From an uncultured virus (IMG/VR IMGVR_UViG_3300047678_000102) (lineage: Duplodnaviria > Heunggongvirae > Uroviricota > Caudoviricetes), in IMG/VR virus record IMGVR_UViG_3300047678_000102: 64,000 bases of DNA; one strand, 5' to 3'. Under the pieces are notes generated by a model that saw nothing but the letters and a program-made list of their open reading frames with translations, did no database searches and was not told the DNA's origin. A program made the translations under genes and the position numbers. Shown in pieces: positions 2,201-63,860 of the stretch. The number at the start of each line of letters is the position of its first letter. The stretch's first letter is position 1.

Positions 2201-3340
2201 TTAGTATTCTGGATTGATGATCTTAAATTTAACTCTTCCTACTCGTTCATCCCATCGTTCCTTGATTGGATGTACAACCACACCCTCTCGAATATGATCT
2301 CCAACTAAGCTTCTTCCCTCACCAAATTTAACCATAGTATCAAAGTCAAAAGGAATGGCTTCGTGAATGACTGGGCAATATGGAATAGCATACTTCCTTA
2401 CAGTATCAAGGTACTCCGGGAAGTCCATCCACATACCATCTGGTTTCAGAATATCAAATGCGCGGAACTTGTGGTTACCATTAGTATCATAGGGGAATCC
2501 CTTTTGATTACCATAAGTTTCACCATAAACAGCAAAATCGGGATTCTCTTGTAGATACTTCTTTAATGTTGGGACGCTATCAAAAGACTTCCACCACAAG
2601 TTACGGGTGGGTTTCCAACTCTCCACCTTACTCCAGACATACTTCGCTTTCTCTTCATTACCCTCAAAATGTTCTAGAATCTGTTCATAGGTAGTGGTTG
2701 GTTTGGTTGGATATTCCCTCTTCCATTCCCCACGAGAACCTACGTGGATTTCACCGTTCTTCATGACAAATCTACTGCTGGACCCATGTATCTTCTCTGT
2801 AAGTGCTACGATCTCATCAGGAAGGAAAACCAATCTTCCATAAGCCATAAAGGCGTCTACATCGTAAACCGGATAGAAACCCTCTGGGGGCTTAGCTGCT
2901 TCTCCTCCAGTAACGTTGGGACCCTTTCTTCGGGTAAATCCCGGTATTCCCATATCGGAGATATCTGGGTCGTAATGGAGGACTCCCATAAGGTCGGCAA
3001 CATTATCCCCAACTTTAGATCCCGATGGTGCGTGTACAAGTAAACCATAAGATACAATACCCCGTAGCTTTTCTGTTCTAATACGGACCATAGGACTACT
3101 TTTTGCTTTCTTCGCAAGAAAAGCAAACTCTGGCCGGGTGGTGTCTACAAGGTTATCCGGTGGAATCCAAGCGGCTAGATCTCCTACCTTCCAATCGGCA
3201 GTCCTGATAATAGATGTGTAATCTGCTACCTTTACCTTGGATAGAGCATCTGCATTTTCATGCTTCAGAATTTCCTTGATCTCTATGACATCAACTTTAT
3301 GGGTGGATTTCTCCACAACCATTGTGCTTGGTCCGTCCAT
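2201..3340 (-). CDS. RNA ligase, DRB0094/Rnl5-like (N-terminal OB/tRNA-binding domain plus adenylation domain)
   Basis: KHENADALS and KLRGIVSYGLL N-terminal motifs; motif I TEKIHGSS; YGE; FDI; REGVVV; FKII. Confidence 0.85.
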   Translation of the reverse strand: MDGPSTMVVEKSTHKVDVIEIKEILKHENADALSKVKVADYTSIIRTADWKVGDLAAWIPPDNLVDTTRPEFAFLAKKAKSSPMVRIRTEKLRGIVSYGLLVHAPSGSKVGDNVADLMGVLHYDPDISDMGIPGFTRRKGPNVTGGEAAKPPEGFYPVYDVDAFMAYGRLVFLPDEIVALTEKIHGSSSRFVMKNGEIHVGSRGEWKREYPTKPTTTYEQILEHFEGNEEKAKYVWSKVESWKPTRNLWWKSFDSVPTLKKYLQENPDFAVYGETYGNQKGFPYDTNGNHKFRAFDILKPDGMWMDFPEYLDTVRKYAIPYCPVIHEAIPFDFDTMVKFGEGRSLVGDHIREGVVVHPIKERWDERVGRVKFKIINPEY

Positions 3341-5431: not shown

Positions 5432-6403
5432 TTAGATCAACGACTTAGTGGGTTTAGCATCATCTTCTTCATCACCCTTCTTACGTCTAGTAATACTCTT
5501 CATTTCGAGTTTCTTCATGGATGCGGGTGCGGCAAGTTTACCATGAACTGTCTTCAAAGATGTCATAACAACATTAACTTGTTCTGGCTTTTGTCGACCT
5601 TCAATTTCCTTATGGAAGTAATCAACTCGACCAGTTTCTTTGGCTAGAATACCAAAGATAACATCCACAACTCGTTGAGCATCTTGCAATGCACAAACGT
5701 GATCTTCACCAAGAAGCTTAATCCATTGCCCCTTAATTTCCTTTTCTCGTGTCCCAGGATAAGTCTTACGCACCAAATACACCGAGTATCTCTTCTGAAG
5801 ATCTTCAATGATTTCATCAATCTTGAGGTGGTCTTCAAGAGACACCTTGGCAAACTTAGCATTCTCTTTCTTCAACTTGTCGTACAACCCTTCATCGCCA
5901 ATGAAGATGAAGATTGGCTTACGAACTGCATTGGGCATCTCTACATTGTCAGTGTAATACTTAGCGGCCAGATCGTAAGACTCTTGGGTGCTTCCACCGC
6001 CACCACCTTCAATGATCAATGCCTTGAGTTCTTTCTCAAGATCAGTACCGCTTACGAATTCTCTTACCTGAAGAGGATACTTATCGGAGAAGCAATCTCC
6101 GATAGCACAGAAAGAAATCTCTGCCTTGTCACCAAGGTATTCCTTACCTTCTTTGTCTAGGTAAGGGAGCTTGCTAAAGATCGTAGCAGGCCATTCCCCC
6201 ATACTACCAGTTACATCGCAAGCAATAACCAAAGGGGATTCACTCTTGGTGGTAAGCTTGTCTGGAAGCATGTCCAGAGCTTTCTTACCAGCAGATATTG
6301 CTTCGGTGTAGCTACGGCCAGCATGACGATCATATGCCTTACGAGCATCGTCAAATACGTGACCCTTCCACGGACCTGGATCATAATCAGAGGTTTCTGC
6401 CAT
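5432..6403 (-). CDS. von Willebrand factor A (vWA) domain protein
   Basis: MIDAS motif DVTGSMG; GGGG..ESY; FIFIGDE. Confidence 0.85.
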   Translation of the reverse strand: MAETSDYDPGPWKGHVFDDARKAYDRHAGRSYTEAISAGKKALDMLPDKLTTKSESPLVIACDVTGSMGEWPATIFSKLPYLDKEGKEYLGDKAEISFCAIGDCFSDKYPLQVREFVSGTDLEKELKALIIEGGGGGSTQESYDLAAKYYTDNVEMPNAVRKPIFIFIGDEGLYDKLKKENAKFAKVSLEDHLKIDEIIEDLQKRYSVYLVRKTYPGTREKEIKGQWIKLLGEDHVCALQDAQRVVDVIFGILAKETGRVDYFHKEIEGRQKPEQVNVVMTSLKTVHGKLAAPASMKKLEMKSITRRKKGDEEDDAKPTKSLI

Positions 6404-7374
6404 TACTTTCTACTCCTTAAAGGTTTCATACTGGTGTATTTACGACCAAATGCTTTCTGTCTTACATTCTGGATTTCTTCACAGAGATTCTTCTTTTCCC
6501 AATTAGGTCTTGAGAGGACTTCCACTCTAATCATATCTTTAATGAACTGACACATAACATCTGGGACTTTGGCGGGGACCTTTTTGTCATTAAGATCTCC
6601 ACCCAAAGCATAAACCATAGTCATTCCAAGACCATAAAAATCAGTCTCTGGAATAACTGGCCCACCATCAATTTGCTCTGGAGCACCAAAGTAAGGAGTG
6701 AATCCTTTATTACAATCCTTACCAGATGGTCGGATCGAAGCCAAACCATAGTCAACAAGCACGACCATATGCTTGTCTTCTTGGATGATAATGTTCTGAG
6801 GTTTTACATCTCCATGACACACACCATTCTTATGGAGGTAAAGAAGGATGTTTAGCACTCTTTCGGTAATCCAAGCCACATCTTCAGGATCTAAATAGTT
6901 TGTATCTTTAACGATATTAGCTAAAGTCTCTCCTGGAATGTAGCTCATAACCAAAGCTAAGGCGTCTTCAATCTTAATGATATCTCTCATAGCAGGGATA
7001 CCATAATGCCTCATATCCCAAATAGCTCTGGCTTCTTCCAGAAGGATTTCTTCATCATAAGCGCTGATCTTATGTGCATGCTTGATACAAACCGGAAGGC
7101 CACTAATAACCTGTTCTGCTTGGTAAGTACGTCCAAATCCACCTTCGGCAATAACATTTAGGATCTTATACCCATTAACGATCTTACCTTTGATCTCCCT
7201 CTTCTTGTCGTACTCTGTTCTCTTCTTTTCATTACAGAGTACCTCATGTGCTTCGTTTAGATCAACCATTCTCTTGTGATCTAATTGATGCATCTTTACC
7301 AAAGCTCTATAAGAGGCTTTAAGCACCTCTTGAGGTGCTTTTGGATGAACTTCCAGTATGTTGTACAGATCCAT
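6403..7374 (-). CDS. Degenerate J-domain fused to Hanks-type Ser/Thr protein kinase
   Basis: N-terminal DLYNILEV...LKASYRAL...LNEAHEVL (HPD replaced by HQL); kinase motifs EGGFGRTY, IK, HGDVKPQN, DYG, APE, D.YGLG. Confidence 0.85.
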   Translation of the reverse strand: MDLYNILEVHPKAPQEVLKASYRALVKMHQLDHKRMVDLNEAHEVLCNEKKRTEYDKKREIKGKIVNGYKILNVIAEGGFGRTYQAEQVISGLPVCIKHAHKISAYDEEILLEEARAIWDMRHYGIPAMRDIIKIEDALALVMSYIPGETLANIVKDTNYLDPEDVAWITERVLNILLYLHKNGVCHGDVKPQNIIIQEDKHMVVLVDYGLASIRPSGKDCNKGFTPYFGAPEQIDGGPVIPETDFYGLGMTMVYALGGDLNDKKVPAKVPDVMCQFIKDMIRVEVLSRPNWEKKNLCEEIQNVRQKAFGRKYTSMKPLRSRK

Positions 7375-7415: not shown

Positions 7416-7446
7416 TTTGACGGGTTTAACATTACTGGGGCTCTTC
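7416..7446 (-). promoter_or_regulatory. Phage promoter-like motif, copy 3
   Basis: rc: gaagagcccc agtaatgttaaacc cgtcaaa, upstream of the kinase operon. Confidence 0.7.
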
Positions 7447-7707
7447 TTTTTCATAAAATTGCCCAAGTGGAATAACTAATTCATCAAGAGGAATTTGATC
7501 AAATGTGGTAATGTATCTAACATTAGTTTGTATCCCTTCGCTGTTTAACTTATCAATAAACTTCTGTCTGTTTCTCACGGCTTTCGTATGTTCTATTCTT
7601 TCTTTTTCTCTCTTTCTATCAACCGATGCCTTCTTCTCTGGATTACATGGTAATCCATAATGATAACTATTCTCTTCGCAATCTGCACAATATTCATGGT
7701 TACCCAT
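7432..7707 (-). CDS. Hypothetical protein
   Basis: Likely start MGNHEYC at 7707, just after the ligase stop; avoids the long overlap of the track call. Confidence 0.55.
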   Translation of the reverse strand: MGNHEYCADCEENSYHYGLPCNPEKKASVDRKREKERIEHTKAVRNRQKFIDKLNSEGIQTNVRYITTFDQIPLDELVIPLGQFYEKEEPQ

Positions 7708-7709
7708 TG

Positions 7710-8366
7710 TTATTCTCCGTATTGTTCCCAACCAGTGCCAAATCTCTTTTTGAGATCTTCTAAATATGCTAACGTCTTGATCTTTCTCATCCAAATACCA
7801 TGAGGGGGTGGACCTTCACATCCTTTTGCTACAACACCTTCCACAACCCCCCACTCTAAATACTGCCCACCCTTTACTTCGTTTATGAATTCTTGATTCA
7901 GGATGCCTTCATAAACTACTTCTGCTACAGGAAGTCCTTCAAAAGTATTGACAAACTGTCTTGGTGTGAGTAAACCTTTCTTATGTACATTTACATCAAA
8001 TAACACCACATCTTTTGGATCATTACTTTCTACATTAAGAACTGGATTCTTAGGGTCGTGTTGCCCACCAAAACTATGTGGACCAAAGAACTCACAGTAG
8101 CAAATCACTTCTCTTACACTACGGAAGTGTTTATCTTTTTTGATAATCTTTTCAAGATCATCCGCATACTTCTTCAAGAAGATATCAATAGCACATCCGT
8201 ACTCTGGATCGGTTCTATCAAACAACCTTCTCCGAGTGCCAAATAGATGCCATCCCTTCTTCCTTTCCCACTCAAACCTTAAATTGCTCCCATCATACTT
8301 TTTAAATGCTATACAAGGAAGGTTAGGTGCTCCATTGGGTCCAAGTATTGATGGGTACTCCTTCAT
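7710..8366 (-). CDS. RNA ligase (Rnl2-like nucleotidyltransferase domain only)
   Basis: KYDGSN motif I; CEFFG; LFDV; EGVVAK; KIK. Confidence 0.75.
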   Translation of the reverse strand: MKEYPSILGPNGAPNLPCIAFKKYDGSNLRFEWERKKGWHLFGTRRRLFDRTDPEYGCAIDIFLKKYADDLEKIIKKDKHFRSVREVICYCEFFGPHSFGGQHDPKNPVLNVESNDPKDVVLFDVNVHKKGLLTPRQFVNTFEGLPVAEVVYEGILNQEFINEVKGGQYLEWGVVEGVVAKGCEGPPPHGIWMRKIKTLAYLEDLKKRFGTGWEQYGE

Positions 8367-8371
8367 ACCAT

Positions 8372-8668
8372 TTACCTTCCTGTCAACATTGCTGCTACTT
8401 CCAAAAGTAGCTCACGTTGTTTTCCTCTGCATAGATTGTGAAATTCAACCCCAGTAATAGCACATAGTGCTTTGGCTCTTTCCATTACATCAGAGACATT
8501 TTCCAACGTCTCCATATCACAACCACAAATTTCACAATCTAATCTAACGCCAACTCTATTTACCGTCATTACTCCAACACAAGCATGAGACATGTGTTTT
8601 CTCTCACAATGAGATTGCCGTAGCATTTCTGCTTCTAAGTCTTGTTCTTGTGACATGCTTTTCCTCAC
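8372..8668 (-). CDS. Hypothetical protein with CxxC
   Basis: Co-oriented ORF overlapping the upstream stop codon. Confidence 0.55.
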   Translation of the reverse strand: MRKSMSQEQDLEAEMLRQSHCERKHMSHACVGVMTVNRVGVRLDCEICGCDMETLENVSDVMERAKALCAITGVEFHNLCRGKQRELLLEVAAMLTGR

Positions 8669-9348
8669 TCTGGATATTCCTTCACTTCACACTTATCATC
8701 ATCAAATAACACATAATGGCAAGGATGTTCAACCCACGATCCCCCATTAACAAACCTGATTCCATCTACCAACGAATCTTCTGTGTAGTGGGTGTGTCCG
8801 GTTATGACACCAACATACCCTTCGGTTTTGGCATACTTTACGGAACTATTTTTGAGCAGTTCTATTACACCACCTAATTGTTTTGCTTGTCTTTTCAACC
8901 ACTTAGCACTGTCTCTGTTAATCTTTTGCACCGTTTGATAACACCAATCTGCCACATCTGTAATTATTGGCCAGTTGAGTGTAGGATCAAACTTATGTCC
9001 GTGTAGAACTAGGAAATTACCTTGCCTGTTACTCAATGTATATTCATCTAAGAAATCTGTGTTCAATATGTTAGGGAGTATGTCAAAATCGTTTGGGGGA
9101 TTACCTTTTTTGGTCTGTTCATCATGATTGCCACGAATTAAAACCAACTTACGTTCTAAAGATATCTTCTTTAGTAATGAGATGATTCTCCAATGTCTTG
9201 GCTTGAACTTTTTGAAATTCAAACTATCTATGGTGTCACCATTTAGAATCAATTTATCAAAGTTGGTTTCAGTCAGGAACTTCTCTAGATACATGGTCAT
9301 ACTTGACTTAGTGCCGAGATGAATGTCGCTAATAATTATGTTTTTCAA
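8665..9348 (-). CDS. Calcineurin-like metallophosphoesterase (LpxH-like)
   Basis: SDIHLG, NGD, GNHD, HGH and GHTH motifs. Confidence 0.85.
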   Translation of the reverse strand: MKNIIISDIHLGTKSSMTMYLEKFLTETNFDKLILNGDTIDSLNFKKFKPRHWRIISLLKKISLERKLVLIRGNHDEQTKKGNPPNDFDILPNILNTDFLDEYTLSNRQGNFLVLHGHKFDPTLNWPIITDVADWCYQTVQKINRDSAKWLKRQAKQLGGVIELLKNSSVKYAKTEGYVGVITGHTHYTEDSLVDGIRFVNGGSWVEHPCHYVLFDDDKCEVKEYPE

Positions 9349-9452
9349 CTTTTGTTTTCTCTTGAAGGTAGTTGTGTAGGTGAACTGCCTTCTATTCTAA
9401 AACAATCGCATAATTGGTTTGAAAAGTTAACCATTTGTTAGTGATTTCTTTA

Positions 9453-9683
9453 TCAATCCCACTTATCTTTGACTCTCTTTCGTAACTCTTTCACAATTTC
9501 AATGGCTTCATCCAAAGTATGAAAATCATACGATCCCATATCACACTTCCAATCAAATCCAAACCTTATTGTTCCAGCATTACCATAAGTCAAATTGAGA
9601 TCCACATGAATAAATTGTTGACCCATATTAGTAGAAATCCGAGAAAGGTCTTGTAGTTGTTGTAATTTTTCAATGTCAAACAT
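9453..9683 (-). CDS. Hypothetical protein
   Basis: Likely start MFDIEK after AGAAGAG; downstream of two stem-loop units. Confidence 0.5.
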   Translation of the reverse strand: MFDIEKLQQLQDLSRISTNMGQQFIHVDLNLTYGNAGTIRFGFDWKCDMGSYDFHTLDEAIEIVKELRKRVKDKWD

Positions 9684-9707: not shown

Positions 9708-9839
9708 AGTAGTGTGTAGTGCTACGTCATCTTTCGTTTTTAAGATAGCCGATCTGCACTACACACTACTATAACAAAGAAATGGTTGAGATAAAGTGCC
9801 GACACGGTTTACAAATCTGATCCCGCCCCAACCATTTCT
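9708..9839 (-). ncRNA. Two stem-loop dual-guide units downstream of the Nop-domain gene (9708-9770, 9778-9839)
   Basis: 15-bp and 11-bp stems; loops AGA-TCGGCTATC-TTAAAAAC-GA-AAGATGACG-TA and GGA-TCAGATTTG-TAAACC-GT-GTCGGCACT-TT. Confidence 0.75.
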
Positions 9840-10663
9840 CTTAGTTCTTCTTGAGTCTTCACCAACGTCGGATTCCATTCCATCCACATATTTTTGAATA
9901 GTAGTTTTGTCGCCAATAACATTGAATGTCGATGAATGTGGGTCCCTGGTAGACCCTTTTCATTTAGCCAATCGGGATGTTTGATAATTGCAGCTTGTTT
10001 AACAGAATTATAATGGGTTCTATAGGGACCATCGCCATTTTGCTTAATTAGATTCTCTCCAATAATGAAGCTGACACTCCTCCTACGGGGAGAATATCCA
10101 AACTCTTCCCACTCTGCCGATTCCAACTCATGGTCTCTATAATATCTATTCTTCCAACTAGATCCCATATGAGTGACGCCATTACTTGTAAAAGGCACTA
10201 ACCCCATTCTCTTACAAACTTTACCTGGACAAGAATAGTTTGCCAAATCTCCGCACTCTCCAACCACCTTTGCCAAGGAATCTAATCCAAAACCCTTCTG
10301 CTCTTTTTCTTCCACCCAATCTGCAACTGAAAGTCGCTTAACTAAAGCCAGCATCTGCTTCTTGTAGTCTTTTTCTTTTACACTAAAAGCTTTGATACAT
10401 GTGTTTGTAATTAGAATCATTTCTTTAATTGGAAAGTCCATCTCGCCAGCCACAACCTTCTCAATAATTTCATCTGCTTCCTCAAACATTTCCTTACGCC
10501 TCTTCTCAGTGATCTTATCTGCTCTTACATCGTGATACCCCGTATGAGCAGTTACAGCTGCTCTCAGTCTATTTTCATTCATAATCCGGGTTTTGGTGTA
10601 CCAGTTCCTAAGTTTTTGATTCTCTTGTAGTTCCTTACAAACAGTTGTCTGATCCATTAACAA
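9809..10663 (-). CDS. Nop/IS110-C-terminal-like RNA-binding protein without RuvC or HNH; TIGR-associated TasA-like
   Basis: N-terminal coiled coil (LRNWYTKTRIMNENRLRA), then GFGLDSLAKVVGECGDLANYSCPGKVCKRMGLVP, GYSPRRRS, PYRTHY and HIHRHSMLLATKLLFKNMW; no DEDD/RuvC N-terminal domain; flanked by a guide-like array. Confidence 0.8.
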   Translation of the reverse strand: MLMDQTTVCKELQENQKLRNWYTKTRIMNENRLRAAVTAHTGYHDVRADKITEKRRKEMFEEADEIIEKVVAGEMDFPIKEMILITNTCIKAFSVKEKDYKKQMLALVKRLSVADWVEEKEQKGFGLDSLAKVVGECGDLANYSCPGKVCKRMGLVPFTSNGVTHMGSSWKNRYYRDHELESAEWEEFGYSPRRRSVSFIIGENLIKQNGDGPYRTHYNSVKQAAIIKHPDWLNEKGLPGTHIHRHSMLLATKLLFKNMWMEWNPTLVKTQEELREMVGAGSDL

Positions 10664-10691
10664 AGCTCCTTTTCGGTTACAGGGATGGATG

Positions 10692-11307
10692 AAATGGGTG
10701 GTGGTACAATTACGTACTTGGTTTTACAGCTTGACTCATACCACCACCCATTTATTAAATAGTCTAGGGATGGTTATTATGGTTGGTCCCATTTTTAAAC
10801 GGCTTCCTATATACTATCCTTAGACTAAAGTTTGTGTGGGGATGTTAAAGCTCAAGCTTCGGTTTTAGTGGCTGTCTCAAACATCACCACATGTTTAAAA
10901 TGTATAGGGTGAGATATCGGACCGATCATCTTAGAAGTCATCTTTTCACTCACCCTATACAAAGTTTAGTGGTGGTAAGATATATTCGCTCTCTAGTTTT
11001 ACACATCCTCGTTTAATTCCTACCACCACGTTTATGTATTGGTGTTTTAAATGGCTAGATTATGGGCGGACTTCTTGTATTAAATACACCAATATGATTC
11101 AAGTTAGAAGATAAAGCCGAATCTCAGGTTTTATCACCCAAATCATCTTTCTAACTTGTAAGAATAAAATGGGTTGGGGATGCTAACAGCCTTGCTCTAT
11201 ACAATGTCGGATATCTGCTATCCCCAACCCATTTTAAGATTGTTAGGTATAGATGATACATGGGCATCTTCAGATTTAACAGCTGTAATCGTATCATCTA
11301 CACCTAA
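10692..11307 (-). ncRNA. Array of nine tandem stem-loops with bipartite 9-nt variable segments (TIGR-like stem-loop guide array)
   Basis: Hairpins at 10692-10753, 10760-10827, 10835-10891, 10901-10961, 10969-11029, 11037-11094, 11100-11158, 11165-11236 and 11243-11307; stems about 12-17 bp, each different; loops about 29-38 nt, most with a central TAAAAC-like motif. Confidence 0.85.
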
Positions 11308-11309
11308 TT

Positions 11310-11870
11310 TTAAACACCAGATACAACAAGATTATTATCTTCTGCATACTTGGTTAATTCTTTAGCCGAAACTGCGTACCTAACCATTTTATCATCTGGA
11401 ACAAGTGGTTGCAAGTACGTAAGGATCTTGGTGTTTCTTGCATAATGGTTTTTGTGTCCTTGGAAAACCTTCTCTTCCATCTCAATCAATCCTTCAATTT
11501 CTCTACCATAGACATCCCCAAGACACTTTCCTGCGATAAACCATTCGTCAAACAGTTGTTTCCTAGCAACTGCATTTACAGTAGTGCCTTTGCCAGGAAT
11601 AACTTTAGCGGTACCAGTGTTTTGATTAACTTTCTTTGGTTTGGTTAGAATAGAACTACCTTGTTGTACCGCTTTAGTTGATTGCATTCTTGTGGTTTGA
11701 ACCAAATTTGAAATGGCATCACAAATTAAAGTACTTACAAACTGCATGTAGTTTGGCAGCTTCTTGATTTTTACTTCTGCTTCATGAATGGATGCTGGCA
11801 CATCTGAGGGGTGGTTTTTAATTGCATTTCTAACAATTTCAACCACTTCATCTGGATACTTAAACAACAT
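11310..11870 (-). CDS. Hypothetical protein embedded in the stem-loop/Nop locus (candidate accessory factor)
   Basis: 186-aa ORF between a lone upstream unit and the nine-unit array; C-terminal GKCLGDVYGREIE...LVPDDKMVR block. Confidence 0.7.
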   Translation of the reverse strand: MLFKYPDEVVEIVRNAIKNHPSDVPASIHEAEVKIKKLPNYMQFVSTLICDAISNLVQTTRMQSTKAVQQGSSILTKPKKVNQNTGTAKVIPGKGTTVNAVARKQLFDEWFIAGKCLGDVYGREIEGLIEMEEKVFQGHKNHYARNTKILTYLQPLVPDDKMVRYAVSAKELTKYAEDNNLVVSGV

Positions 11871-11896
11871 GAACAGTTACCCCCAGTTAAAGAAAA

Positions 11897-11959
11897 GTTG
11901 TTGGGTTGCTTTAGAGCTGTCTGTCGTTTTACACAGCCTCAATCTATCAACCCACCAAC
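11897..11959 (-). ncRNA. Single upstream stem-loop dual-guide unit
   Basis: Stem gttgttgggttg/caacccaccaac; loop (rc) AGA-TTGAGGCTG-TGTAAAAC-GA-CAGACAGCT-CT. Confidence 0.7.
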
Positions 11960-12004: not shown

Positions 12005-15000
12005 TTATTTGGTTGGGAAAAGATTGGGGAATCTATTTTTTAATTGTCCAGAATATTTTTGGAGGAGTCCTAACATCGCACGACATTCCGATTCAGTGTT
12101 TAGATTATGCCCAAGCCACCTCGAGATGTAGCTGTCCGGCTTGTTAAAGCCGATCCCATTAAGTTCAGACGCATAATCAGGATCGTTTGCTACCATCGCA
12201 TTAAAAGCATTTCTAATACTTTCAGTCAGTTCTGGAGTAAGAGGTTGCTCAATCCATTTACCAATCTTACTCTTGAACTTCTCTGCGATTTGCTCAACCT
12301 TAGTTCTAACTTCTTTAGTTGAATTCTCCTTTTCAACTTTCTCTGCATCTTCTCTTGCCTTCTTAACCAATTCCATACGTTGAGCAAACTGCTCCGAAGT
12401 TTCACCTTGTAGAATATTATCGGCTGTATTGACTGGAATAATTGGTTTTACAAGTTTTTCTACACTGCCTTCAATCATCCTCATTTTCTTAAGAATGAGA
12501 TTGTTCACATGTTGATCCATAACATGTGAACTCATCATCGTAACAATTTCGATTTTGTCTGAAGTCTGACCAATACGGCAGATTCTATCATGGCATTGCA
12601 TATTACAGCTCGGCGTCCAATCCAAATCTACCATCAACATCTTCCAAGCACGTGTCAGATTAATACCGATACCACCTGCCTGGATGGTTAGTGCAACACC
12701 CTTCAACTTTCCTGATTGGAACTGTTCTTGAATCTGAGTTCGCATTTCTGGGGGAGTGCTACCAGTAATAGCAGCCCACCCTTCCCTACCTCCTACTTCG
12801 TCGATGCAGTGTCGGTGAGCACTAGCTACTACAAGGGGCGTATTTTGCTCTTCACAGTCTTCCACGTACTCTAGCACGTCCGCAAGACGAGATGCCGCCA
12901 GTTCTGCTCGAATAGCCGAGAACTGTTCGAAAGGTGGCAATTCTCCAGTAGTGTCAACATAATCTCCCCACTCTGCTTCAAGATCATCCAACTTCTTCTT
13001 GAGAGAATCAGGAATATTGTTGACCGTGATAGTAGTATACGTCTTCCTAGGAAGATCAGGAAGAACCTCTTCTCGCTTTCTTCGTAGCATCACCCTTCGC
13101 AGTAGTTCGGGAACTTCTGGTGATGGGTCGCCCCAGATAATACCAAAACGTCCCTTTTCCGCATTGAACAACCGCATGAACTTACCCCAATGGCCAAACG
13201 TCATTTCGGCCATGTTGATCGAGTCCAACATGTTATAGAGTTGTTCAGCGTGGTTTAGAACTGGTGTTCCCGTAAGGCCCGTAACTGCCTTACACAATCC
13301 TGACAACACCCTTACCTTACGAGATCTTTGGGACGTACGATTACTGCATCGGTGAATCTCATCACCAATGAAGTGAGTTTGTGCCAACACCAATCTGAGG
13401 GGCTCTGGAACTTTCGCAACACCTCTGGTTTTTGAATTGGTTCCTTTATTCTTACAAGCATAACAACCACTTCTGTTGCATTTCCAACAGAAGTAATCAT
13501 CGCCAATTAGATAGATATTACCATTTTCAAGGAAGAGATTCTTTCCTCCCTTAGCTTCTGGAAGATTTTCATATTCAGAGATCTTTCCGCCACCCAAAAG
13601 AATCTTATCTTGAGGTAGGAAATAATCTGGAATAGATTCGTAATTGGTGATTACGATCTCTCTTTGATTTGGCCCGCGAAAAGAATCCTTGCCTTTAACA
13701 ACTGTTGCGGTGAATTCTGGCGTCCACTTAGCAATTTCATTCCTCCAGTTGTACATTACAACTGCTGGGCAAATCACCAATGCTCGACCATTTTGAGGAA
13801 GGGCACAAAGCGCTTGTACAGTCTTGCCACAATTATGAACTACAATACCATTAGCAACAAAGTTACGATAAGGGTCTTTACAAACAATATCATAAACATG
13901 TGCAGTGCCATCTAATTCTATAGATTTAACATAATCAATTTTGGGAACAAAACATATTTGTCCGCCTTTACCGCCAATTCCTCCCTGTATGTTCTTATAT
14001 CCCCCAGCTTTTCCATGAAGGATCATATGCTTAGATTTACTAAGAACTTCTAGGTTCTCTAATCTGTTATCGTCTTTAATCCTATTTTTGTGATGTACTT
14101 CTTCATCGTCTGTTAAATACCTACCTAAAGATTCTTCCATTACCAATATATGTTCACCAATTCCCCACTGTGAAAACTTGGGATGTTTTCTTGCTTTTCC
14201 AGAACGGACCATAACATAACCGTCTTTATCAGTATATTTTCCACCTTTAAAATTGCCAACTTTCCGTTTGGTTTCATACATACACTGTTTACAATAACCT
14301 GGAAATTTTGCAAATTCATAGCTGATCACCTGTTTAAATTCACCACATCCCTTACAAACAGCTTGTCCATTAGTTAGAACTATATCACCAATTGCAAGCC
14401 TATCTGCTCTAACCCATTCTTTAGTCAGTCTATCTTCTCCCAACGAACAAATTTCATGATCTGAAGTAAGTCTGATTGATTTTCCAGATTCCAAAATCAC
14501 TTTTAGAACTGGTTTTACACCTTTATCCAATACCCTTTCGATTTCCTGAAGACGAAACTCCTCTCCACACAATGCCCGGACACGAGTTGGTATGTTTGGG
14601 TCCCAATATTTGCCGCCAGTTATTCTTCCACCATTAAATTTATGGTAAAGGTCTTTCAACTTTATTTTGAATCCCTTTCCACCAATTCCAGCCCCTCTGT
14701 TTACATTAATAATTGCTTCGCCGTCAATACATCCCATGTCATCGCCCAGGAGACGATGGGTACCAGAAGCTAGGAATCTGACTCCTTGAACCTGGAACGG
14801 GTATAGGTTCTTATTGAGAGCTACTTCTTCTTGTTGAGTCTTAGCTACGGTTCTGAGTTCTGGAGCAACTTCAAGAGCCAACTTGTCCGCAATCTCCAGA
14901 ACACGGATACGGTCATGGGGTGAGGTAGATACAGTAGTGAACCAGGAACCATCTGGCTTCTTTACATTACTATACCCTGGAAACGAACGAAGCAATGGCA

Positions 15001-15235
15001 TATTGGCAGCTTCGTAGGGCATAATAACTTGCCCTTCAGCAGTCAACTTACGAGGAGAGTTTCTAACCTTGGGATTGTCAATCAGTTCAGGACAACAGGT
15101 GGAACAATATGAGACCCACCTGTTGTTTTGACGAACTGCATAGCCAACTCCGGGTTGAAGTCCACCATATCGGTTTCTCTTCTCCGGGCAAACCGGGTTA
15201 TTGCATCTTCCAACGAACCTATTTGGGATGGCCAT
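12005..15235 (-). CDS. SNF2/SWI2-family helicase (HARP/SMARCAL1-like) interrupted by an intein
   Basis: LYPFQ Q-motif; DDMG|intein|CGKT Walker A; DEIH; LTGTP; GGIGINLT; DRICRIGQ. Confidence 0.9.
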   Translation of the reverse strand: MAIPNRFVGRCNNPVCPEKRNRYGGLQPGVGYAVRQNNRWVSYCSTCCPELIDNPKVRNSPRKLTAEGQVIMPYEAANMPLLRSFPGYSNVKKPDGSWFTTVSTSPHDRIRVLEIADKLALEVAPELRTVAKTQQEEVALNKNLYPFQVQGVRFLASGTHRLLGDDMGCIDGEAIINVNRGAGIGGKGFKIKLKDLYHKFNGGRITGGKYWDPNIPTRVRALCGEEFRLQEIERVLDKGVKPVLKVILESGKSIRLTSDHEICSLGEDRLTKEWVRADRLAIGDIVLTNGQAVCKGCGEFKQVISYEFAKFPGYCKQCMYETKRKVGNFKGGKYTDKDGYVMVRSGKARKHPKFSQWGIGEHILVMEESLGRYLTDDEEVHHKNRIKDDNRLENLEVLSKSKHMILHGKAGGYKNIQGGIGGKGGQICFVPKIDYVKSIELDGTAHVYDIVCKDPYRNFVANGIVVHNCGKTVQALCALPQNGRALVICPAVVMYNWRNEIAKWTPEFTATVVKGKDSFRGPNQREIVITNYESIPDYFLPQDKILLGGGKISEYENLPEAKGGKNLFLENGNIYLIGDDYFCWKCNRSGCYACKNKGTNSKTRGVAKVPEPLRLVLAQTHFIGDEIHRCSNRTSQRSRKVRVLSGLCKAVTGLTGTPVLNHAEQLYNMLDSINMAEMTFGHWGKFMRLFNAEKGRFGIIWGDPSPEVPELLRRVMLRRKREEVLPDLPRKTYTTITVNNIPDSLKKKLDDLEAEWGDYVDTTGELPPFEQFSAIRAELAASRLADVLEYVEDCEEQNTPLVVASAHRHCIDEVGGREGWAAITGSTPPEMRTQIQEQFQSGKLKGVALTIQAGGIGINLTRAWKMLMVDLDWTPSCNMQCHDRICRIGQTSDKIEIVTMMSSHVMDQHVNNLILKKMRMIEGSVEKLVKPIIPVNTADNILQGETSEQFAQRMELVKKAREDAEKVEKENSTKEVRTKVEQIAEKFKSKIGKWIEQPLTPELTESIRNAFNAMVANDPDYASELNGIGFNKPDSYISRWLGHNLNTESECRAMLGLLQKYSGQLKNRFPNLFPTK
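13832..14731 (-). mobile_element. Intein (300 aa) carrying an HNH homing endonuclease
   Basis: Starts CIDGEA, block B LTSDH, HNH EHILVME...VHHKNRIKDDNRLENL, ends VYDI...NFVANGIVVHN followed by Cys. Confidence 0.9.
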
Positions 15236-23334: not shown

Positions 23335-24219
23335 ATGTCTGATACATGGTCAAAAGAATTTTGTCCTGCATGTAAATCCGGTAACTGGGTTAATTATGGA
23401 GACCCAGAAGATATTACTGGAGTAGACGTAGACGCACTTTGTTGTTGGAATTGTAGCCAAGTATTTTGGATTAGTGTTGAATCTGCTGAAGACATTTATT
23501 TTGGGAGGTATAACAAATACACTCCCGATGATGATGAGCCAGACTACAAATCTTTAGACGAAGTATTAATGAACGTAGCTAACATTGAAAACGGCCGTAA
23601 AAACCCTGATGATCCCTACGTTCATTATGAGGGGTAATATGAATTCTGATAAAAACTCTACACAAGAATGTATTGAATTGGTGAGGTTTCTAAAAAAGAT
23701 GCCTGGGTTTACTCTGGTTGATTTTAGCGAAGCACCTCATTGTGGCGCTATTTATGTTGGGTTTGAAGCCGATGAATCTACTTTAATAGAGATACTGACG
23801 CGGAATTTGTATTCTTATAGCCATGCCTATATTGGTGTTTGTTTACATAATGGGAAGATAATGTATTACATTAATTTTGGTATTGGGTGTGCTGGTCGTT
23901 TCGTCCGGGGAAAGGTAGAAGAATGAAGTCAAAGTCTGCTGCTGGGATGGAAGGGAAGTTGTTAATTTATCCCAGTGAGAATGACGGAAGGATTCTAGTT
24001 TATTTCAGAGTCTATGATAAAGATGAACATGGTAGAATAAAGAGAAATGAAGACGGAAAATGTCAGTACAAAGACTACAAGATTTGGCACCACGATCTAG
24101 AAATAAAACTACTTGATGGTCATTGTTACGAAACAGACGGCGGTAATTTCATTGATTACTCTTATCAAATCACCAAAGATAAGTATGAGAAACTAGACCA
24201 CTCAACAACTAAAGAGTAA
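23335..24219 (+). other. Three hypothetical ORFs (23335-23637 CxxC, about 23639-23926, about 23923-24219)
   Basis: Co-oriented; internal ATG starts fit better than the track starts. Confidence 0.55.
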
Positions 24220-30399: not shown

Positions 30400-30455
30400 A
30401 AACCGTCTATTTTCTAAGAATCGTAACACCTATTTTTAGGTATAATAGACGGTTT
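30400..30455 (+). promoter_or_regulatory. 12-bp inverted repeat overlapping a TATAAT box upstream of nrdJ
   Basis: aaaccgtctatt / aatagacggttt; TATAAT at 30441-30446. Confidence 0.4.
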
Positions 30456-30495: not shown

Positions 30496-33400
30496 ATGAA
30501 GATTTCGCGTATATTCACAACGGCTGGGCAATCTCCATATGCTTCTATTAAGTTCACCTCTCGTTCATCTAAAATAGTAAATCCAGATGGGTCCGTTGTT
30601 TTTGAGATGAAAGATATTCAGGCTCCAGAACACTGGTCTCAAGTGGCGGTGGATATTTTAGCTCAGAAGTATTTTAGAAAAGCTGGGGTGCCAAGGGTCC
30701 TGACTAGAGTAGTAGAACACTTGGTACCAGAATGGTTACAAAAGTCGGTACAAAGCATTGATTGTACACACACAGAATCAGAAACAGACGCAAAACAAGT
30801 TTTTCATAGAATGGCGGGATGTTGGACTTATTGGGGTTGGAAAGGAAATTATTTTGGAAGTCGTATGGGATTATATTATACCGAAGCAGAACGTAACGCT
30901 TCAGCTTTCTACGACGAAGTATGCTATATGCTTGCTATGCAAATGGCAGCACCTAATTCCCCTCAATGGTTCAACACTGGATTACACTGGGCTTATGGAA
31001 TTGATGGTCCAGCCCAAGGTCATTATTATGTAGACCCCTATTTATATGACACTGCTTCGATGGACGTTTCCGAACAATCTAGATTGGATTCGTGCACAAT
31101 AAAAAGCACTTCTGCTTACGAACGTCCACAACCACATGCTTGTTTTATACAAGGTATTAAAGACGACCTTGTAAATGACGGTGGTATCATGGACCTATGG
31201 GTCAAAGAAGCTAGAATCTTCAAATATGGTAGTGGTACAGGGACCAATTTCTCAAACCTTAGAGGAGAAGGGGAACCGCTATCAGGAGGCGGTAAATCTA
31301 GTGGGTTAATGAGTTGGTTGAAAATAGGAGATAGATCTGCAGGAGCAATCAAATCAGGAGGAACTACCCGCCGCGCTGCGAAGCTTGATTGTTTAGACTT
31401 AGACCATCCAGATATTGAACAATTTATCAATTGGAAAGTTGTAGAAGAGCAAAAAGTAGCAGAACTTGTCATTGGATCAAAATTACTTAAACATCATATT
31501 CAGAAAATATTTGATGCTATTAATTTACATTGTGCCTCAGCAGATATTGATTTTAGATGTGATGTTACTAAGAATTTTGCATTGAAAAAATCAGTAAAAG
31601 AAGCCAAGAAATCTTTAATTCCATCGAGTTATATCAATCGAGTCATTCAGTTATGTAGAATGGGATTCACTGATTTAGAAATCGAAGAATATGATACTGA
31701 TTGGAACTCAAAAGCATATCTTACGGTGTCAGGGCAAAATAGTAATAACTCAGTACGTGTTCCAAACGAGTTTATGGATCTGGTGGAAAAAAATGATTCT
31801 AAACAATGTGCAGAACATTGGTGCCCTTGGAATTTATACTGGAGAACAGAGAAGCAAAAATCGTTAAAAGAAGGTAGGAAACCAAAGCCGTGTAAAACCC
31901 TTGACGTAAGAGATCTATGGAACCAAATAGCTTCTGCAGCGTGGTCTTGTGCTGATCCAGGACTTCAATTCGATACCACTATAAATGAATGGCACACTTG
32001 CCCTGAAGGCGGTAGAATTGAAGCCGCAAACCCGTGCGCTGAATACAATTTCTTATCGGAAACCGCATGCAATCTAGCATCCCTAAACTTGATGAGATTC
32101 TATTCTTCAGAAACTGAAAAGTTTGATGTTGAGAAATTCAATCACGCAGTAAGAATCTGGACTCTAATCCTTGAAATCTCTGTCTACATGGCACAGTTTC
32201 CAAGTAAGGAGATTGCTCAGAAATCTTATGATTATAGAACATTAGGATTGGGATACGCCAATTTAGGTTCCTTGTTAATGGTGCAAGGGATCCCCTACGA
32301 TTCCGAAGAAGGTAGAGCTCAAGCTGGTGCTATTACTGCCATTATGCATTGTGGTGCATATGCTACTAGTGCTGAAATGGCTGGTGAATTAGGAGCATTC
32401 TCTAAGTATGAAGAAAATATAAAACATATGTCTAAAGTCATTCATAATCACGATAAAGCATTATACAATGCAATAGATGATTATGATAGCCTGTCAATAT
32501 TACCAGTTCCAGTTGATCCTAGATATTGCCCCCATTATTTATTAGAAGCTGCTAAAGACCGATCTACAAATATGATAATTTGGGGTAATACCCATGGTTA
32601 TCGTAATGCACAAGTTACGGTTATCGCTCCGACAGGATGTCTGATAGGTAACACTTTAGTTTCAACAGACAGGGGGTTAGTTCCTCTTAATACATTAGGA
32701 AACACAAATGGAAATCAATGGCAAGACGTTGACTTTAACGTTCTTACAGACATCGGAATTAAAAAAGCAACCAAGTTTTACATTAATGGAATTCAACAAA
32801 CCCGAATAATAAACACCGATAGTAGATATAGAATACAAGGGACATTACAACATAAAATAAAAGTAGTTAACCCATTATCTGGAGATTTACAGTGGAAATG
32901 CCTATCAGATGTTGTAGAAGGGGATATAGTCCCGTTGTCTATGAATAACATGGTAGGCGACCCAAAGAAAATAAAACTTCCAGATTTGGAAGAGATGTAT
33001 TGGAATAATAATTTTGATGTTAAAGTTCCAAGGGAAATGAATTCTGAGTTAGCTGAATTGTTAGGTTATTTTATGGGGGATGGTGCATACAAAAGTAAAG
33101 GTATTGGTTTTTGTGTAACCAAAGGTGATGATGACGTAATTGAAAGACTAAAATACTTGGGTAAAAGCTTATTCAATATAGAAGCTGGTACTGATGATAA
33201 TGGTGGGTATATCGGGGTTTATTACACATCTACTGGTCTTGCTAATTGGTGGGAATCGTGCGGGTTTAAAAAATTCTCTCCGTCTCCTACCCATAAGGGG
33301 AAAGGCTATACCCCGCATATTCCAAACGCTGTTTTGTATAGCAACGATCCTAAGTGCTATCAAAGTTTCTTAAAGGGATTATTTGAAGCAGATGGAACAG

Positions 33401-35298
33401 CTAGCGGAGGGTCTCTAGGATTTGGTACAGCGAGTGAGTATTTTAGAGATCAAGTAAAAGCTATGATGCTTACATTAGGGTTTCCAACCTCTTCAAGAGA
33501 GTGTATATCTGGGTGGGGCCAAGCTCCAATATATGGGGTTGGAATGAAAAGTAGAACGTATAACAAGAGATTTAAAGAAGAGATTGGGTTTATCAGTCAA
33601 AGGAAAAACGGCCAAATCTCAGAAAAAGAAGCATACCAACAACATAAAACAGATAGAGTATATTTGCCAAAATTATTAATTGATATGATTCATGAGTCTA
33701 AAATTTACCCCATTGCTGTGCAAAATTGTAAGAAAAGAGGGTATTTTTCAAGACAAGTATTGAATGAGATAAACAGTGTTCTTTTGAATAAAGATATAGA
33801 GCACTATTTGAATTTCTTTTATGATATTGTAAAATCTAATGAAGACGGTGGGGAACAACCCACATATGATTTATCTGTACCTGAAAATGTTACCTACATC
33901 GCTAACGGGTTTATAAGTCATAACACGATCGGCCTTATCATGGACTGCGATACTACAGGATGCGAGCCAGATTTTGCATTAGTTAAATTCAAGAAACTAG
34001 CTGGTGGTGGTTATTTCAATATCATCAATCAATGCGTACCTCAAGCATTAGTAAAACTAGGGTATACAGATAAAGAAATAGAAAAAATAACGAAATATGC
34101 GACCGGCCACCGAACTTTAACAGGATGTCCCCATAGAGGTATTTTAGAAGAGAACTACATAGATTTTGTAATACGAGACATAGAAAAGCAACTTCCAGGA
34201 GCTTTTCACATCTCATATGTTATTCCAGAAATGGACAAACATTTTACTAAAGAAGAAATAGATGAGATTAACACGTATGTTTGTGGCACTATGACTTTAG
34301 AAGGTGCACCCCATTTAAAAGAAGAACATTATCCTGTATTTGATTGCGCTAATAAATGTGGTAAGAACGGTAAGAGATTCCTTTCTGCTGAATCCCACAT
34401 TAGAATGATGGCAGCAGTACAGCCTTTCATATCAGGAGCTATTTCTAAAACCATCAATATGCCTAATGAGGCAACTATTCAAGATGTTAAGAACGCTTAC
34501 ATGCTAAGTTGGAAGTTAATGTTGAAAGCAATTGCTTTGTACAGAGACGGTTCAAAGTTAAGTCAACCTCTGAACACCATAATAGATGAAGTGGAAGAAA
34601 CACAAGAAGAGGAACCAAAGGAAAAGGTGATAGCAATGGCCGAAAAGGTTGTTCAACGATATATAGGAGAACGCAAACGACTTCCAGATCGTCGTAGTGG
34701 ATACACCCAAAAGGCTCACATTGGTGGTCATAAGTTATACCTACATACTGGAGAATACAAAGATGGCACACTAGGTGAAATCTTTGTAGATATGTCTAAA
34801 GACGGTGCCGCTTTTAGAAGCATGACTAACGCTTTCGCCATTGCCGTATCTATCGGACTTCAGTATGGTGTTCCTCTTGAAGAGTTTGTTGAAGCATTCA
34901 CCTTCACGAGATTTGAACCTAATGGTATTGTTCAAGGTAATGATCAAATTAAGATGGCCACTTCTATTGTTGATTACATCTTTAGGGAATTAGCCATTAC
35001 ATATCTTGATAGGCATGATTTAGGGCATGTTCAGGAAGAAGATCTACGAAGTGATGCTTTACATAAAGAGGAAGAAGTAGAACAAGATATTGTAGCCAAG
35101 GTGAATAAGAAAACAGAAGATGAATTAATCACCAAACAACAGTCTGTAAAAGTTAATGAAAGAAACAAACTATTGGAAATCGCACGTATTAGTGGATATG
35201 AAGGTGATCCGTGTAGAGAATGCGGTCAGTTAACAATGGTTAGAAATGGCGCTTGTTTGAAATGCACCACTTGTGGATCAACATCTGGATGTAGCTAA
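30496..35298 (+). CDS. nrdJ: Class II (B12-dependent) ribonucleotide reductase with intein and C-terminal TSCPD/Zn-ribbon domain
   Basis: [49 protein letters not shown]|intein|[17 protein letters not shown], terminal CRECG...CTTCG..SGCS. Confidence 0.95.
32638..33924 (+). mobile_element. Intein (429 aa) with LAGLIDADG homing endonuclease
   Basis: Starts [15 protein letters not shown] and [10 protein letters not shown] motifs, ends TYDLSV...[10 protein letters not shown] followed by Thr. Confidence 0.92.
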
Positions 35299-39144: not shown

Positions 39145-39437
39145 GCAAAGAGTTCACTACTTACACTACCTAAACGGAGGACCAGAAAATGGAAATCTTT
39201 TCCCTGCTCAAAGACGTTATTTTAAACTCTCTGTTGGATTCTATCTTTATTGCGATAATGTAATAGATAAAAATGCGATCCCATGCGATTCTAATGGTTC
39301 TGTAGATTTTATTGACGACCCATTAAAACTAGACAAATTTTTACGCATTGATATGCATTGATATGCAGTATATTGGAATAAAAATCAATTGTATTTGTTC
39401 AGATTGCGGTGCTTTAAGTAATGAATGTAAATGTTAA
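39137..39437 (+). pseudogene. Hypothetical gene truncated by a 10-bp tandem duplication
   Basis: gcattgatat twice at 39345-39364; removing one copy extends the frame to LRIDMQYIGIKINCICSDCGALSNECKC-stop, overlapping the tnpB ATG. Confidence 0.6.
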
Positions 39438-40663
39438 TTCAACGTTCTTACAAGACTGAACTTGATCCTAATAATAAACAGAAAACACTGTTTGTTAAAG
39501 CATGTGGAGTGCGTAGGTTTGTATGGAATTGGGGATTATCCCAAAGAATTGAAGTATACAAAACCACTGGTAAATCAGATGGCGACCAAGACTTACGTAA
39601 GTCTTTAGGGAAAATAAAAGATGAAAAATTCCCGTGGGTAAGAGAAGTCAATTCTACTGTACCTACCTCCGCTCTACGTGATCTGGATAACACTTATAAA
39701 TACTTCTTTCGCAGATGTAAAAATGGTGAAAAACCAGGATTTCCTAAGTTCAAAAGCAAAAAGAATGGATTAGGTAGTTTTAGATTGTATAAGATCTACA
39801 ACCACCATGTAAAACATAATAAAATCAAATTGCCAAATATTGGTTGGGTGAAATTAAAAGAAAAAGGATATCTACCAACTTTTGGTGTTAAGATTAATTC
39901 AGTAACTATCAAAGAAAAAGCTGGCAGATGGTATTGTTCTCTCAAAATAGAAGAAAATGTTAATACAGAACAAATCCAGGGTGCAATTGTAGCATACGAC
40001 TTAGGTCTAAACTGTTTTACTTATGGTAGTGACACCACCCAAGAATTCGCACCAAAACCATTAAAGAAATCACTACGTAAGTTACAGAAACTGTCTAAGC
40101 AACATTCAAGAAAGAAGAAAGGATCTAACAATAGAAAGAAACACACAAAGAAATTAGCCAAACTTCATCTGCATATTGCTAATCAACGTAAAGATTATTT
40201 AGATAAACTTACTACAACACTAGCGAAAACCAAGTCAGTGATTGTGGTAGAAGATCTTAATGTTGAAGGAATGAAGAGAAATCATTGTTTAGCAAGATCT
40301 CTATTAGATGTAAGTTTTGGTACATTCATCTCGATGCTTCAATACAAAACCAAATGGTATGGTTCTACATTATTCAAAGTTGATCAATGGTATCCCTCAT
40401 CCCAAATATGTTCTAATTGTGGTATGAGATGTAAAGAGAAAATGAAATTGAATGATAGAACATTTAATTGTGAGTTTTGTAATTTAACATTGGATAGAGA
40501 TTTTAATGCGTCTCTTAATCTTTTGAATTACTATATTGATGAGTTGAGATGTGGAGTTAATCCAAATACCGTGAGATCTACGGGAATTAACGCTTCTGGA
40601 GATGACAACATTGGTTGTCTCGATGAAGGAAGAACCAATCAATCACAAGAAATTGTGGTGTAA
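39431..40663 (+). mobile_element. tnpB: IS200/IS605-family TnpB RNA-guided endonuclease, no tnpA nearby
   Basis: N-terminal HTH (RFVWNWGL), GFPKFK, RuvC-I YDLG, RuvC-II VVEDL, Zn finger CSNC/CEFC, RuvC-III DRDFNA; 3' end ccgtgagatctacgggaattaacgcttctggag typical of the omega-RNA/right-end region. Confidence 0.92.
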
Positions 40664-53559: not shown

Positions 53560-54473
53560 GAACAGACTTTATATCATTTGTTTTTTTACCAGTTCGATGG
53601 TCAACAACCAAACTGGTTATATAATTATATGTTCTTATTTTATCCCCCCTTCCTCTGTTTTTAAAGTCTTTCTCCTTAATTTTTACATAATTCGTATGAT
53701 TTTGTGTATTGTATAAGTTATTAACCTTGACTGAGAGGATCTTTCTTGCGTCTTTTCTATTATGAACTTGGTCCCTACCGTTAATAAACACACATAATCC
53801 AGTTGGTAGATGTTTAAGTCGCACCGCAGAATTTACGCAATTCGCATTCCTTCCACCTGCCTTTTGACTACCAGTTTGAAAAGACTCTTCCAGTTCGTTC
53901 TCATTCAGAGCCAGTAACGTCCTTTCTGGAGGAAGGGGCAAAATAGCGACTGAAACCAACGATGTCTGCCTGCGACCTTTATGTTCGGTTGGAGGCACTC
54001 TTTGTACGCAATGCTTCCCAGCTTCCATTAAGAAAGCCCTACCTGCATTATGTCCAGTCAGTTTTGCTACGACATGACCATTAGATTGGTCATAAATTTC
54101 AGATTTGATGTTGTGACGTGATGCATACTTGACGTATGCAGAGAATAGATCATCTACGAACAGTTTAGAATCTGTTCCACCCTCTCCGAATTGCAACTCC
54201 AGTATTATTTCTGTTGCATTCTCAAAGAGAGTCCCTCTGGTTATTTAGAGAAACATTACTCGAAACTTGTTGAATCTGATTCATGATACAATCTCCTATG
54301 GTAAGATGACTACTAAAACAATTAGACACAACTTGATCAACTTGAGACATTATTTGTTGTAAATACTTTTTCTTCTCTTCCCAATCATCACCTAAACCCA
54401 ATCCAACTAGTGGATGGTTATTGTTGTCACTATTAATACCTTTAGATTTCAGAATCCATTTTAGAGTTAGCAT
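53525..54473 (-). CDS. Class I peptide chain release factor homologue (RF1-like PxT, GGR instead of GGQ), probably made by +1 frameshift at CTT-TGA 54227-54222
   Basis: EIILELQFGEGG, EAGKHCVQRVPPTEHKGRRQTS, AGGRNAN..NSAVRLKHLPTG, KIRTYN; the upstream 83-aa ORF ends AGG GAC TCT CTT TGA G. Confidence 0.8.

Positions 54474-61526: not shown

Positions 61527-63860
<2,334 letters not shown>

Follow-up and report, generated by a model that had tools for sequence, protein, structure and literature searches.

The 186-aa open reading frame that lies inside a guide array of an uncultured Caudoviricetes virus (IMG/VR IMGVR_UViG_3300047678_000102) probably codes for an accessory protein dedicated to a clade of phage stem-loop TIGR-TasA systems. 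The protein family, here called the partner, is conserved, and its gene is almost always the one directly upstream of tasA. We likewise consider it probable that the partner gene and tasA, together with the guide hairpins scattered between and around them, constitute a self-contained module in a single orientation, and that this module passes between phages with very different genomes. On sequence grounds, the partner and TasA may be produced from one transcript and act jointly. The partner gene is what is new here; the stem-loop TIGR-TasA system itself is already known. In the following, the window is the whole stretch of viral DNA that was analyzed, 64,000 nt in length.

Guide hairpins and gene order in the window

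Between 9.7 and 12.0 kb of the window, the minus strand carries, from 5' to 3', the end of an SNF2 helicase gene, a lone stem-loop unit, the partner gene, nine further units, tasA and another two units (Table 1). The first-pass annotation had placed the 186-aa gene between the lone unit and a nine-unit array, in the same orientation as the Nop-like gene (9809-10663). Its coordinates and the shared minus-strand orientation were confirmed. A GGGGG run is found approximately 9-13 nt upstream of the partner ATG.

Table 1. Positions of the partner gene, tasA and the guide units in the window.
Feature	Position	Strand	Remarks
Lone stem-loop guide (tigRNA-like) unit	11897..11959	-	inverted repeat; in the 134-nt spacer between the SNF2 stop and the partner start
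Partner gene, 186 aa	11310..11870	-	ORF with ATG start; unnamed, mostly helical family of ~170 aa
Nine-unit stem-loop array	10692..11307	-	inverted repeats between the partner gene and tasA
tasA, nuclease-free Tas (Nop-domain) protein, 282 aa	9809..10657	-	ATG at 10657 with AAGGAG upstream
Stem-loop unit over the tasA 3' end and stop codon	9778..9839	-	inverted repeat
Stem-loop unit downstream of tasA	9708..9770	-	inverted repeat; 15-bp perfect stem

The arms of the lone unit (11897-11908 and 11948-11959) are 12 nt long and 92% complementary, and they enclose a 39-nt loop with GTAAAAC at its center; CTT is present at both stem bases. This unit ends 26 nt 5' of the partner ATG. On the other side of the gene, the array starts 3 nt past the stop codon (11310-11312), as had been annotated, the first stem base at 11307 being the third base after it. 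Eight of the nine array units were recovered as inverted repeats, starting at 10692, 10760, 10901, 10969, 11037, 11100, 11165 and 11243, and the ninth (10835-10891) was found when one mismatch or G-U pair was allowed. The unit at the 3' end of tasA covers the last codons of the 282/284-aa gene.

Altogether, twelve hairpin units lie in tandem within 9708-11959, the arrangement by which stem-loop TIGR arrays are recognized. Their stems are 10-18 bp long and their loops 26-44 nt; every stem sequence is different, and the spacers differ among all units as well. By eye, a TAAA(A)C-like motif is central in 8 of the 12 loops, and CTT occurs at the base of several stems on the minus strand. The array hairpins are predicted to be stable (-10 to -34 kcal/mol). 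Hairpins are more abundant than expected by chance, because the 64-kb window contains eight perfect ones (stem of at least 11 bp, loop of 22-48 nt) against zero to one in five block shuffles; five of the eight fall in 9.7-11.3 kb. A scan for promoters and terminators gave site numbers no higher than in shuffled sequences, and no meaningful match was obtained in Rfam.

Outside this region, an isolated perfect hairpin with a 12-bp stem and a 37-nt loop is located at 23567-23627, within or between the small plus-strand ORFs 23335-23637 and 23585-23926 and 12 kb from the array. The center of its plus-strand loop reads GTAAAAAC, like the guide units, and it could represent an orphan guide unit. Two more perfect hairpins in this size class are located at 30400-30455, just upstream of a ribonucleotide reductase gene, and at 63298-63347, inside a collagen-repeat ORF.

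Several other genes of the window were identified. The SNF2 helicase gene (12005-15235, minus strand) contains an intein and an HNH endonuclease, and the class II ribonucleotide reductase gene (30496-35298) an intein and a LAGLIDADG domain. A TnpB-like gene at 39431-40663 (OrfB_IS605, Cas12f1-like TNB and HTH domains) is the second gene of an RNA-guided-nuclease type in this phage window. Two RNA ligase-family genes and a gene for a Thg1-like tRNA-His guanylyltransferase (2201-3340, 7710-8366 and 46037-46882) suggest an RNA repair set. In addition, the window encodes a peptide chain release factor-like protein (53525-54196; PCRF and RF-1 domains) and a fusion of DnaJ with a protein kinase (6403-7374).

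TasA and the partner protein family

The product of the gene downstream of the array is 282 aa long, or 284 aa from an alternative TTG start at 10663 (ORF 9809-10663). Pfam contains no family for the 282-aa protein at E <= 1, and PHROGs returned only an unnamed "transposase" family. The NCBIfam model NF052498 (TIGR_Tas_endo) matches it with an E-value of 4.9e-18 and 65.9 bits, under the 100-bit cut-off, and TasH ranks first in a profile search of the PDB (E 0.043). An AF2 model generated from an alignment of 59 TasA sequences (A3) has a pLDDT of 93.7. The top Foldseek match of this model is TIGR-TasR (9mty_B, E 4.3e-4, probability 1.00, TM 0.51), and TasH is found too. VIA-align gives Z-scores of 15.5 to TasR (188 aligned residues, rmsd 2.9), 14.7-15.3 to TasH, 12.5-13.0 to the IS110-family recombinases IS621/ISCro4 and about 7-7.7 to Nop5, Nop56/58 and Prp31. 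The alignment to Tas structures spans residues 1-277 of the model, nearly all of it, and there is no HNH or RuvC nuclease domain, which agrees with the nuclease-free Nop protein of the first-pass annotation. According to its predicted fold, the 282-aa neighbor is a nuclease-free Tas protein (TasA) that combines a coiled coil with a guide-binding domain of the Nop type. From the identity of TasA and the hairpin units together it follows that the locus is a stem-loop TIGR-TasA system, a known kind.

Some TasA relatives (P0157, P0158, P0179 and P0199, and those of loci L019, L026 and L101) contain, close to the C-terminus, a CxxC-rich insertion that resembles a zinc knuckle; they have weak matches to DnaJ_CXXCXGXG and carry the precomputed label PF27659.

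For the partner, phmmer against 1.84 billion cluster representatives identified 335 matches at E <= 1e-3, including 61 at E <= 1e-10. The best 150 of the 335 are 141-241 aa long and align over nearly their full length at 27-42% identity. Because of these matches, the conserved alignment positions and an AF2 pLDDT of 85.5, the 186-aa partner is, as far as sequence can tell, a real and conserved protein and not an orphan. In an alignment of 69 family members (A1), only ~25-42% identical, the near-invariant positions are R61, L117, G118, G122, E132, G138, L153, V157, V163 and L172, and the motifs IAGxTLGxxxGxEL, GHxFNA and VPxDKxV can be discerned. The polar residues R61, E132, N146 and H139 are conserved in 99, 91, 88 and 86% of the members, respectively; the consensus residues H62 and N65 are replaced by M and T in the window protein.

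The AF2 model of the partner (pTM 0.67) is mostly helical. Three helices form an N-terminal domain (residues 7-69), which a linker modeled at low confidence (~70-95) connects to a C-terminal helical domain with a short hairpin. Within the linker (residues 70-95), the window protein has five K/R and no D/E, and family members have a median pI of 8.75.

No catalytic motif had been recognized at first pass, and we likewise found no family for the window partner and no such motif in Pfam (to E <= 1), PHROGs or NCBIfam. Family searches of the 69 members, Pfam included, were equally without match, and no helix-turn-helix or other regulator family was detected among them. Neither the single protein nor the profile matched any PDB sequence. 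Foldseek of the whole model against PDB and BFVD yielded no match above unrelated helical proteins, and VIA-align of the same whole model against 48,161 chains reached a best Z of 5.2 (3.6 in a second look), the level of unrelated helical proteins. In the protein atlas, the matches are unnamed, mostly viral clusters. Searches of deposited phages by tblastn with the window partner and with P0010 returned nothing, a word-index homolog search found only the partner itself (three proteins with the profile), and single-protein scans for partner-related loci gave no match. That the partner is a split-off Tas domain was ruled out, as the partner and Tas profiles are unrelated.

Co-occurrence of the partner and tas genes

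The association between the two genes was assessed from either side. Starting from Tas, a search with alignment A3 yielded 149 viral loci, and 80 of these were retained. The A1 partner profile, which is independent of these 80 loci, matches 53 of them at E <= 1e-3, and after four iterations the profile matches 66. Every positive locus contains a single partner match, without exception upstream of tas and in the same orientation. Of the 14 partner-less loci, six have less than 850 nt of contig upstream of tas, and in another four (L054, L039, L080 and L057) the top sub-threshold match (E 5e-6 to 0.69) is the ORF immediately upstream of tas. Two loci, L025 and L070, have room upstream of tas and yet no partner even at relaxed thresholds, which counts against the reading as a dedicated partner. 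The link between partner and tas persists down to ~23-30% TasA identity; in the partner-linked TasA branch, the C-terminal helix reads ...RAQRYMEKRLLRDLW.

Starting from the partner, a sub-alignment (A2) led to two viral loci, both with a Tas homolog directly downstream on the same strand; these Tas proteins are 40-41% identical to the window TasA (E 2e-71 and 4e-60). Beyond tas, both loci continue with genes for terminase and portal proteins. A DNA pattern back-translated from GHxFNA...VPxxKxV, which samples only the motif-bearing part of the family, has six matches in viral contigs, and tas is just downstream in all six, giving 8/8 viral loci for the two partner-first searches. The same pattern has 24 matches in metagenome contigs, one of which (L094) is a chance match, with the other 23 encoding the partner. 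A same-strand tas is present in 18/18 metagenomic partner contigs with at least 890 nt downstream, some of which duplicate one another, and the remaining five of the 23 end at most 239 nt past the partner gene. Most of the 335 partner clusters sit on short contigs, and the neighborhoods described here are those of the sampled loci. The first-pass annotation had proposed that the gene is a dedicated partner of the Nop effector and that its homologs should co-occur with Nop-domain genes and hairpin arrays; the co-occurrence was upheld in every informative locus, from either gene. This supports a partner role, and the activities suggested for it at first pass (effector, processing or guide acquisition) are putative.

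No comparable association was found for other neighbors. All-against-all clustering of the flanking ORFs gave only three recurrent sets: 83 TasA sequences, a shadow ORF antisense to them, and the partner, which falls into one cluster of 31 loci and smaller divergent ones; no further gene family occurs in more than 8 loci. The SNF2 helicase had been suggested as an alternative source of the missing activity. Because homologs were present in the fetched flanks of only three distinct contigs (L034, L004=L086 and L049), it is not part of the partner-TasA module, and that suggestion is not supported. In L034, a close SNF2 homolog of that of the window (7431-9629, E 7e-144) lies downstream of tas, and this contig may derive from a relative of the phage of the window.

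These counts also bear on the possibility that the partner is an unrelated phage gene lying by chance in a scattered guide array. Stem-loop units have been reported at flexible positions, inside genes too (Xu et al., 2026; 10.64898/2026.09.09.750476), and the SNF2 gene and an 84-aa ORF beside the module are indeed non-conserved neighbors. However, a chance position is contradicted by the co-occurrence in both directions (53 and 66 of 80; all 8 viral and all 18 metagenomic loci) and by the lack of any other conserved neighbor, and we regard it as hardly credible. A different caution is that the two genes could have stayed adjacent because they are inherited together as a mobile block, which argues against reading joint function from it.

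The guide hairpins accompany the gene pair. The gap between partner and tas has a median of 331 nt and ranges from overlap to ~2 kb. Counting perfect stems of at least 10 bp with loops of 20-60 nt, the partner-tas gaps contain 59 hairpins in 28.1 kb, the 400 nt upstream of the partner 27 in 27.9 kb, the 1 kb downstream of tas 39 in 67.6 kb and the two coding regions 28 in 102.9 kb. The density is thus ~8-fold higher between partner and tas than within both genes. In three loci, the tas start overlaps the partner stop, by 14 nt (L047), 8 nt (L049) and 11 nt (L061), and ATGA/GTGA at the junction in L053 and L056 makes an overlap possible, with the frame uncertain. The overlapping frames indicate, at the sequence level, that partner and tas belong to one operon, possibly with coupled translation, and so suggest that both proteins are made in matched amounts.

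The genomic setting of the pair is variable. On the high-GC phage contigs L001 and L002, it immediately precedes the genes for the small and large terminase subunits and the portal protein, whereas the window pair is surrounded by replication-type genes. Among 120 Tas homologs, a fusion with partner sequence was found only in P0270, a 231-aa protein from a bacterial MAG in which the N-terminal domain of the partner (profile 2-73) is fused to a C-terminal Tas half (profile 145-265) and which probably arose by deletion within a module of partner, array and tas. A pattern scan of bacterial genomes gave two chance matches, with neither gene present, and the profile found 0/401 in one phylum and 0/2 in the genomes behind L113 and L114.

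Candidate roles of the partner and relation to known systems

Stem-loop TIGR-TasA systems have been described with units on either side of tas and within it and with CUU at the stem base (Faure et al., 2025; PMC12045711; Xu et al., 2026), and a further description is given in the preprint "Asymmetric DNA targeting" (10.64898/2026.08.11.744272). TasA acts in them as an RNA-guided transcriptional repressor (Faure et al., 2025; Xu et al., 2026). Similar to these systems, the window combines a nuclease-free Nop-domain Tas with tandem hairpins that have variable palindromic stems, two short spacers around a central linker and CUU at the stem bases; it is phage-borne, and its units lie upstream of, downstream of and over tas. 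In contrast to the published systems, for which no second protein is named, the clade of the window has a ~170-aa gene before tasA in nearly every related locus. The distinct subtype proposed at first pass would therefore be limited to the added partner gene, as the stem-loop array and nuclease-free TasA had already been described.

A full-text search of the TIGR-Tas literature, largely of main texts, found no description of the partner family, and the only TasA-associated gene found in the accessible text is tasParB. The accessible text of Faure et al. (2025) reports no clear protein associations of TasA apart from tasParB, which argues against a dedicated accessory protein, and describes the PlTasA locus as three sub-arrays split by a "~450-nt intergenic region". 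Neighborhoods were clustered at 50% identity in the method given there, and the partner may have escaped such clustering since its members are only ~25-42% identical. The part of Table S1 of that paper that was available contains none of six contig ids of partner loci and no MLLATKL motif; GYSPRRR-motif proteins, similar to the partner-linked TasA branch, are present in it.

TasParB, which is ParB-like by HHpred, accompanies dual-repeat arrays (Faure et al., 2025). Like in the tasParB-tasA operons, the partner is a second gene in operon-like order with a nuclease-free tasA, and in both cases arrays occur upstream, downstream or between the two genes. Unlike TasParB, the partner has a mostly helical model and stem-loop arrays, and ParB Pfam models match none of the 69 members at E <= 0.01 and not the window protein at E <= 1. 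At the sequence level, with neither a ParB-like domain nor dual-repeat arrays, the partner does not match TasParB. No counterpart of the partner is present in the solved complexes of TasR and TasH.

More distant systems offer functional analogies. In archaeal and eukaryotic box C/D RNPs, Nop5 or Nop56/58 acts together with L7Ae/15.5K and fibrillarin, and Prp31 with 15.5K. By analogy, a Nop-domain protein of the phage module might also work with a small partner protein on a guide RNA, but the partner is not similar to the L7Ae or fibrillarin families, whose Pfam domains are absent from the window protein and the 69 members. Nuclease-free CRISPR effectors have accessory proteins as well, such as TniQ for Cas12k and DinG for type IV systems. 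The pairing of a nuclease-free RNA-guided DNA binder with a dedicated output protein may be comparable, as a functional analogy only; there is no relation in sequence or fold.

We tentatively favor, at somewhat less than even confidence, the view that the partner assists the TasA-guide RNA complex as a cofactor that is not itself an enzyme. A basic, two-domain protein with a flexible K/R-rich linker could bind TasA and/or nucleic acid and, acting as adaptor or co-repressor, would stabilize, load or extend the RNA-guided binding of DNA, a role perhaps comparable to the role proposed for TasParB in dual-repeat TasA systems. This is favored because residues with a structural role (Gly, Leu, Val) make up most of the near-invariant positions, because the putative catalytic histidine H139 is kept in only 86% of the family and the window protein departs from the consensus at two further polar residues, and because the overlapping frames suggest matched protein amounts. 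Against a cofactor, the published TasA papers report, as far as their accessible text goes, that binding of guide RNA and DNA by PlTasA, MbTasA and BlTasA, and their repression or activation of reporters, did not depend on adding a partner, so the partner would be dispensable for core binding in those systems.

The main alternative to the cofactor is a guide-RNA maturation factor, which would bind the precursor transcript that includes its own mRNA and would cut, or direct cutting, at the stem-base CUU, in place of the Y/H processing loop that is absent from stem-loop Tas proteins. Consistent with this, the gene is embedded among guide units (26 nt past one and with the array 3 nt after its stop), several minus-strand stem bases carry CTT, and the partner is basic, with the conserved polar residues R61, E132, H139 and N146. 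In the accessible text of Xu et al. (2026), stem-loop Tas proteins are likewise without a processing loop, CUU cleavage is attributed perhaps to "auxiliary factors", and longer flanking sequence sharpened the guide boundaries. However, the same text reports processing of stem-loop arrays in E. coli and favors a host RNase. No RNase family or fold, Cas6-like and HEPN-like included, was matched by the partner in Pfam or by its whole model in Foldseek and VIA-align. In addition, H139 is not invariant, H62 and N65 are M and T in the window protein, most near-invariant positions are Gly, Leu or Val, and several loci have abutting or overlapping genes with no array in between. Taken together, we consider maturation unlikely.

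Less probable again is a DNA- or RNA-binding regulator that would control transcription of the array and tasA, for example read-through of the hairpins, from outside the effector complex. The partner is the first gene of the module and encodes a small, helical, basic protein, and stable hairpins (-10 to -34 kcal/mol) could hinder transcription. Nevertheless, none of the 69 members belongs to a helix-turn-helix or other regulator family, generic regulators usually swap between modules whereas the partner remains linked to a single Tas clade even where Tas identity falls to 23-30%, and the frame overlap suggests matched amounts of partner and TasA.

A factor for guide acquisition, building or renewing stem-loop units, would fit a conserved gene embedded in arrays in which all stems and spacers differ, and no adaptation machinery for TIGR arrays is known from the accessible text of Faure et al. 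(2025) and Xu et al. (2026). Yet Pfam, Foldseek and VIA-align revealed no integrase, nuclease, polymerase or reverse-transcriptase features in the partner, and a lone helical protein of 170 aa is an unlikely adaptation machine; we regard this role as very improbable.

We also hold as doubtful the broader proposal of a system-encoded factor, one that would recognize the stem-base CUU, mature guides or load them onto TasA, or help to create units. If it were true, the clade would represent an RNA-guided system of two proteins that encodes a biogenesis component of its own, and the processing and adaptation questions of the TIGR-Tas papers would be addressed.

In the accessible parts of these papers, TIGR-Tas systems are presented as single-protein RNA-guided systems, and the maturation of stem-loop guides, the role of nuclease-free TasA in phages and the building of arrays are left as open questions. 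The partner family, which is encoded inside the guide array and goes with one TasA clade across widely divergent phages, is a concrete candidate for each of those questions, and it may matter for the use of TasA as a programmable repressor or activator.
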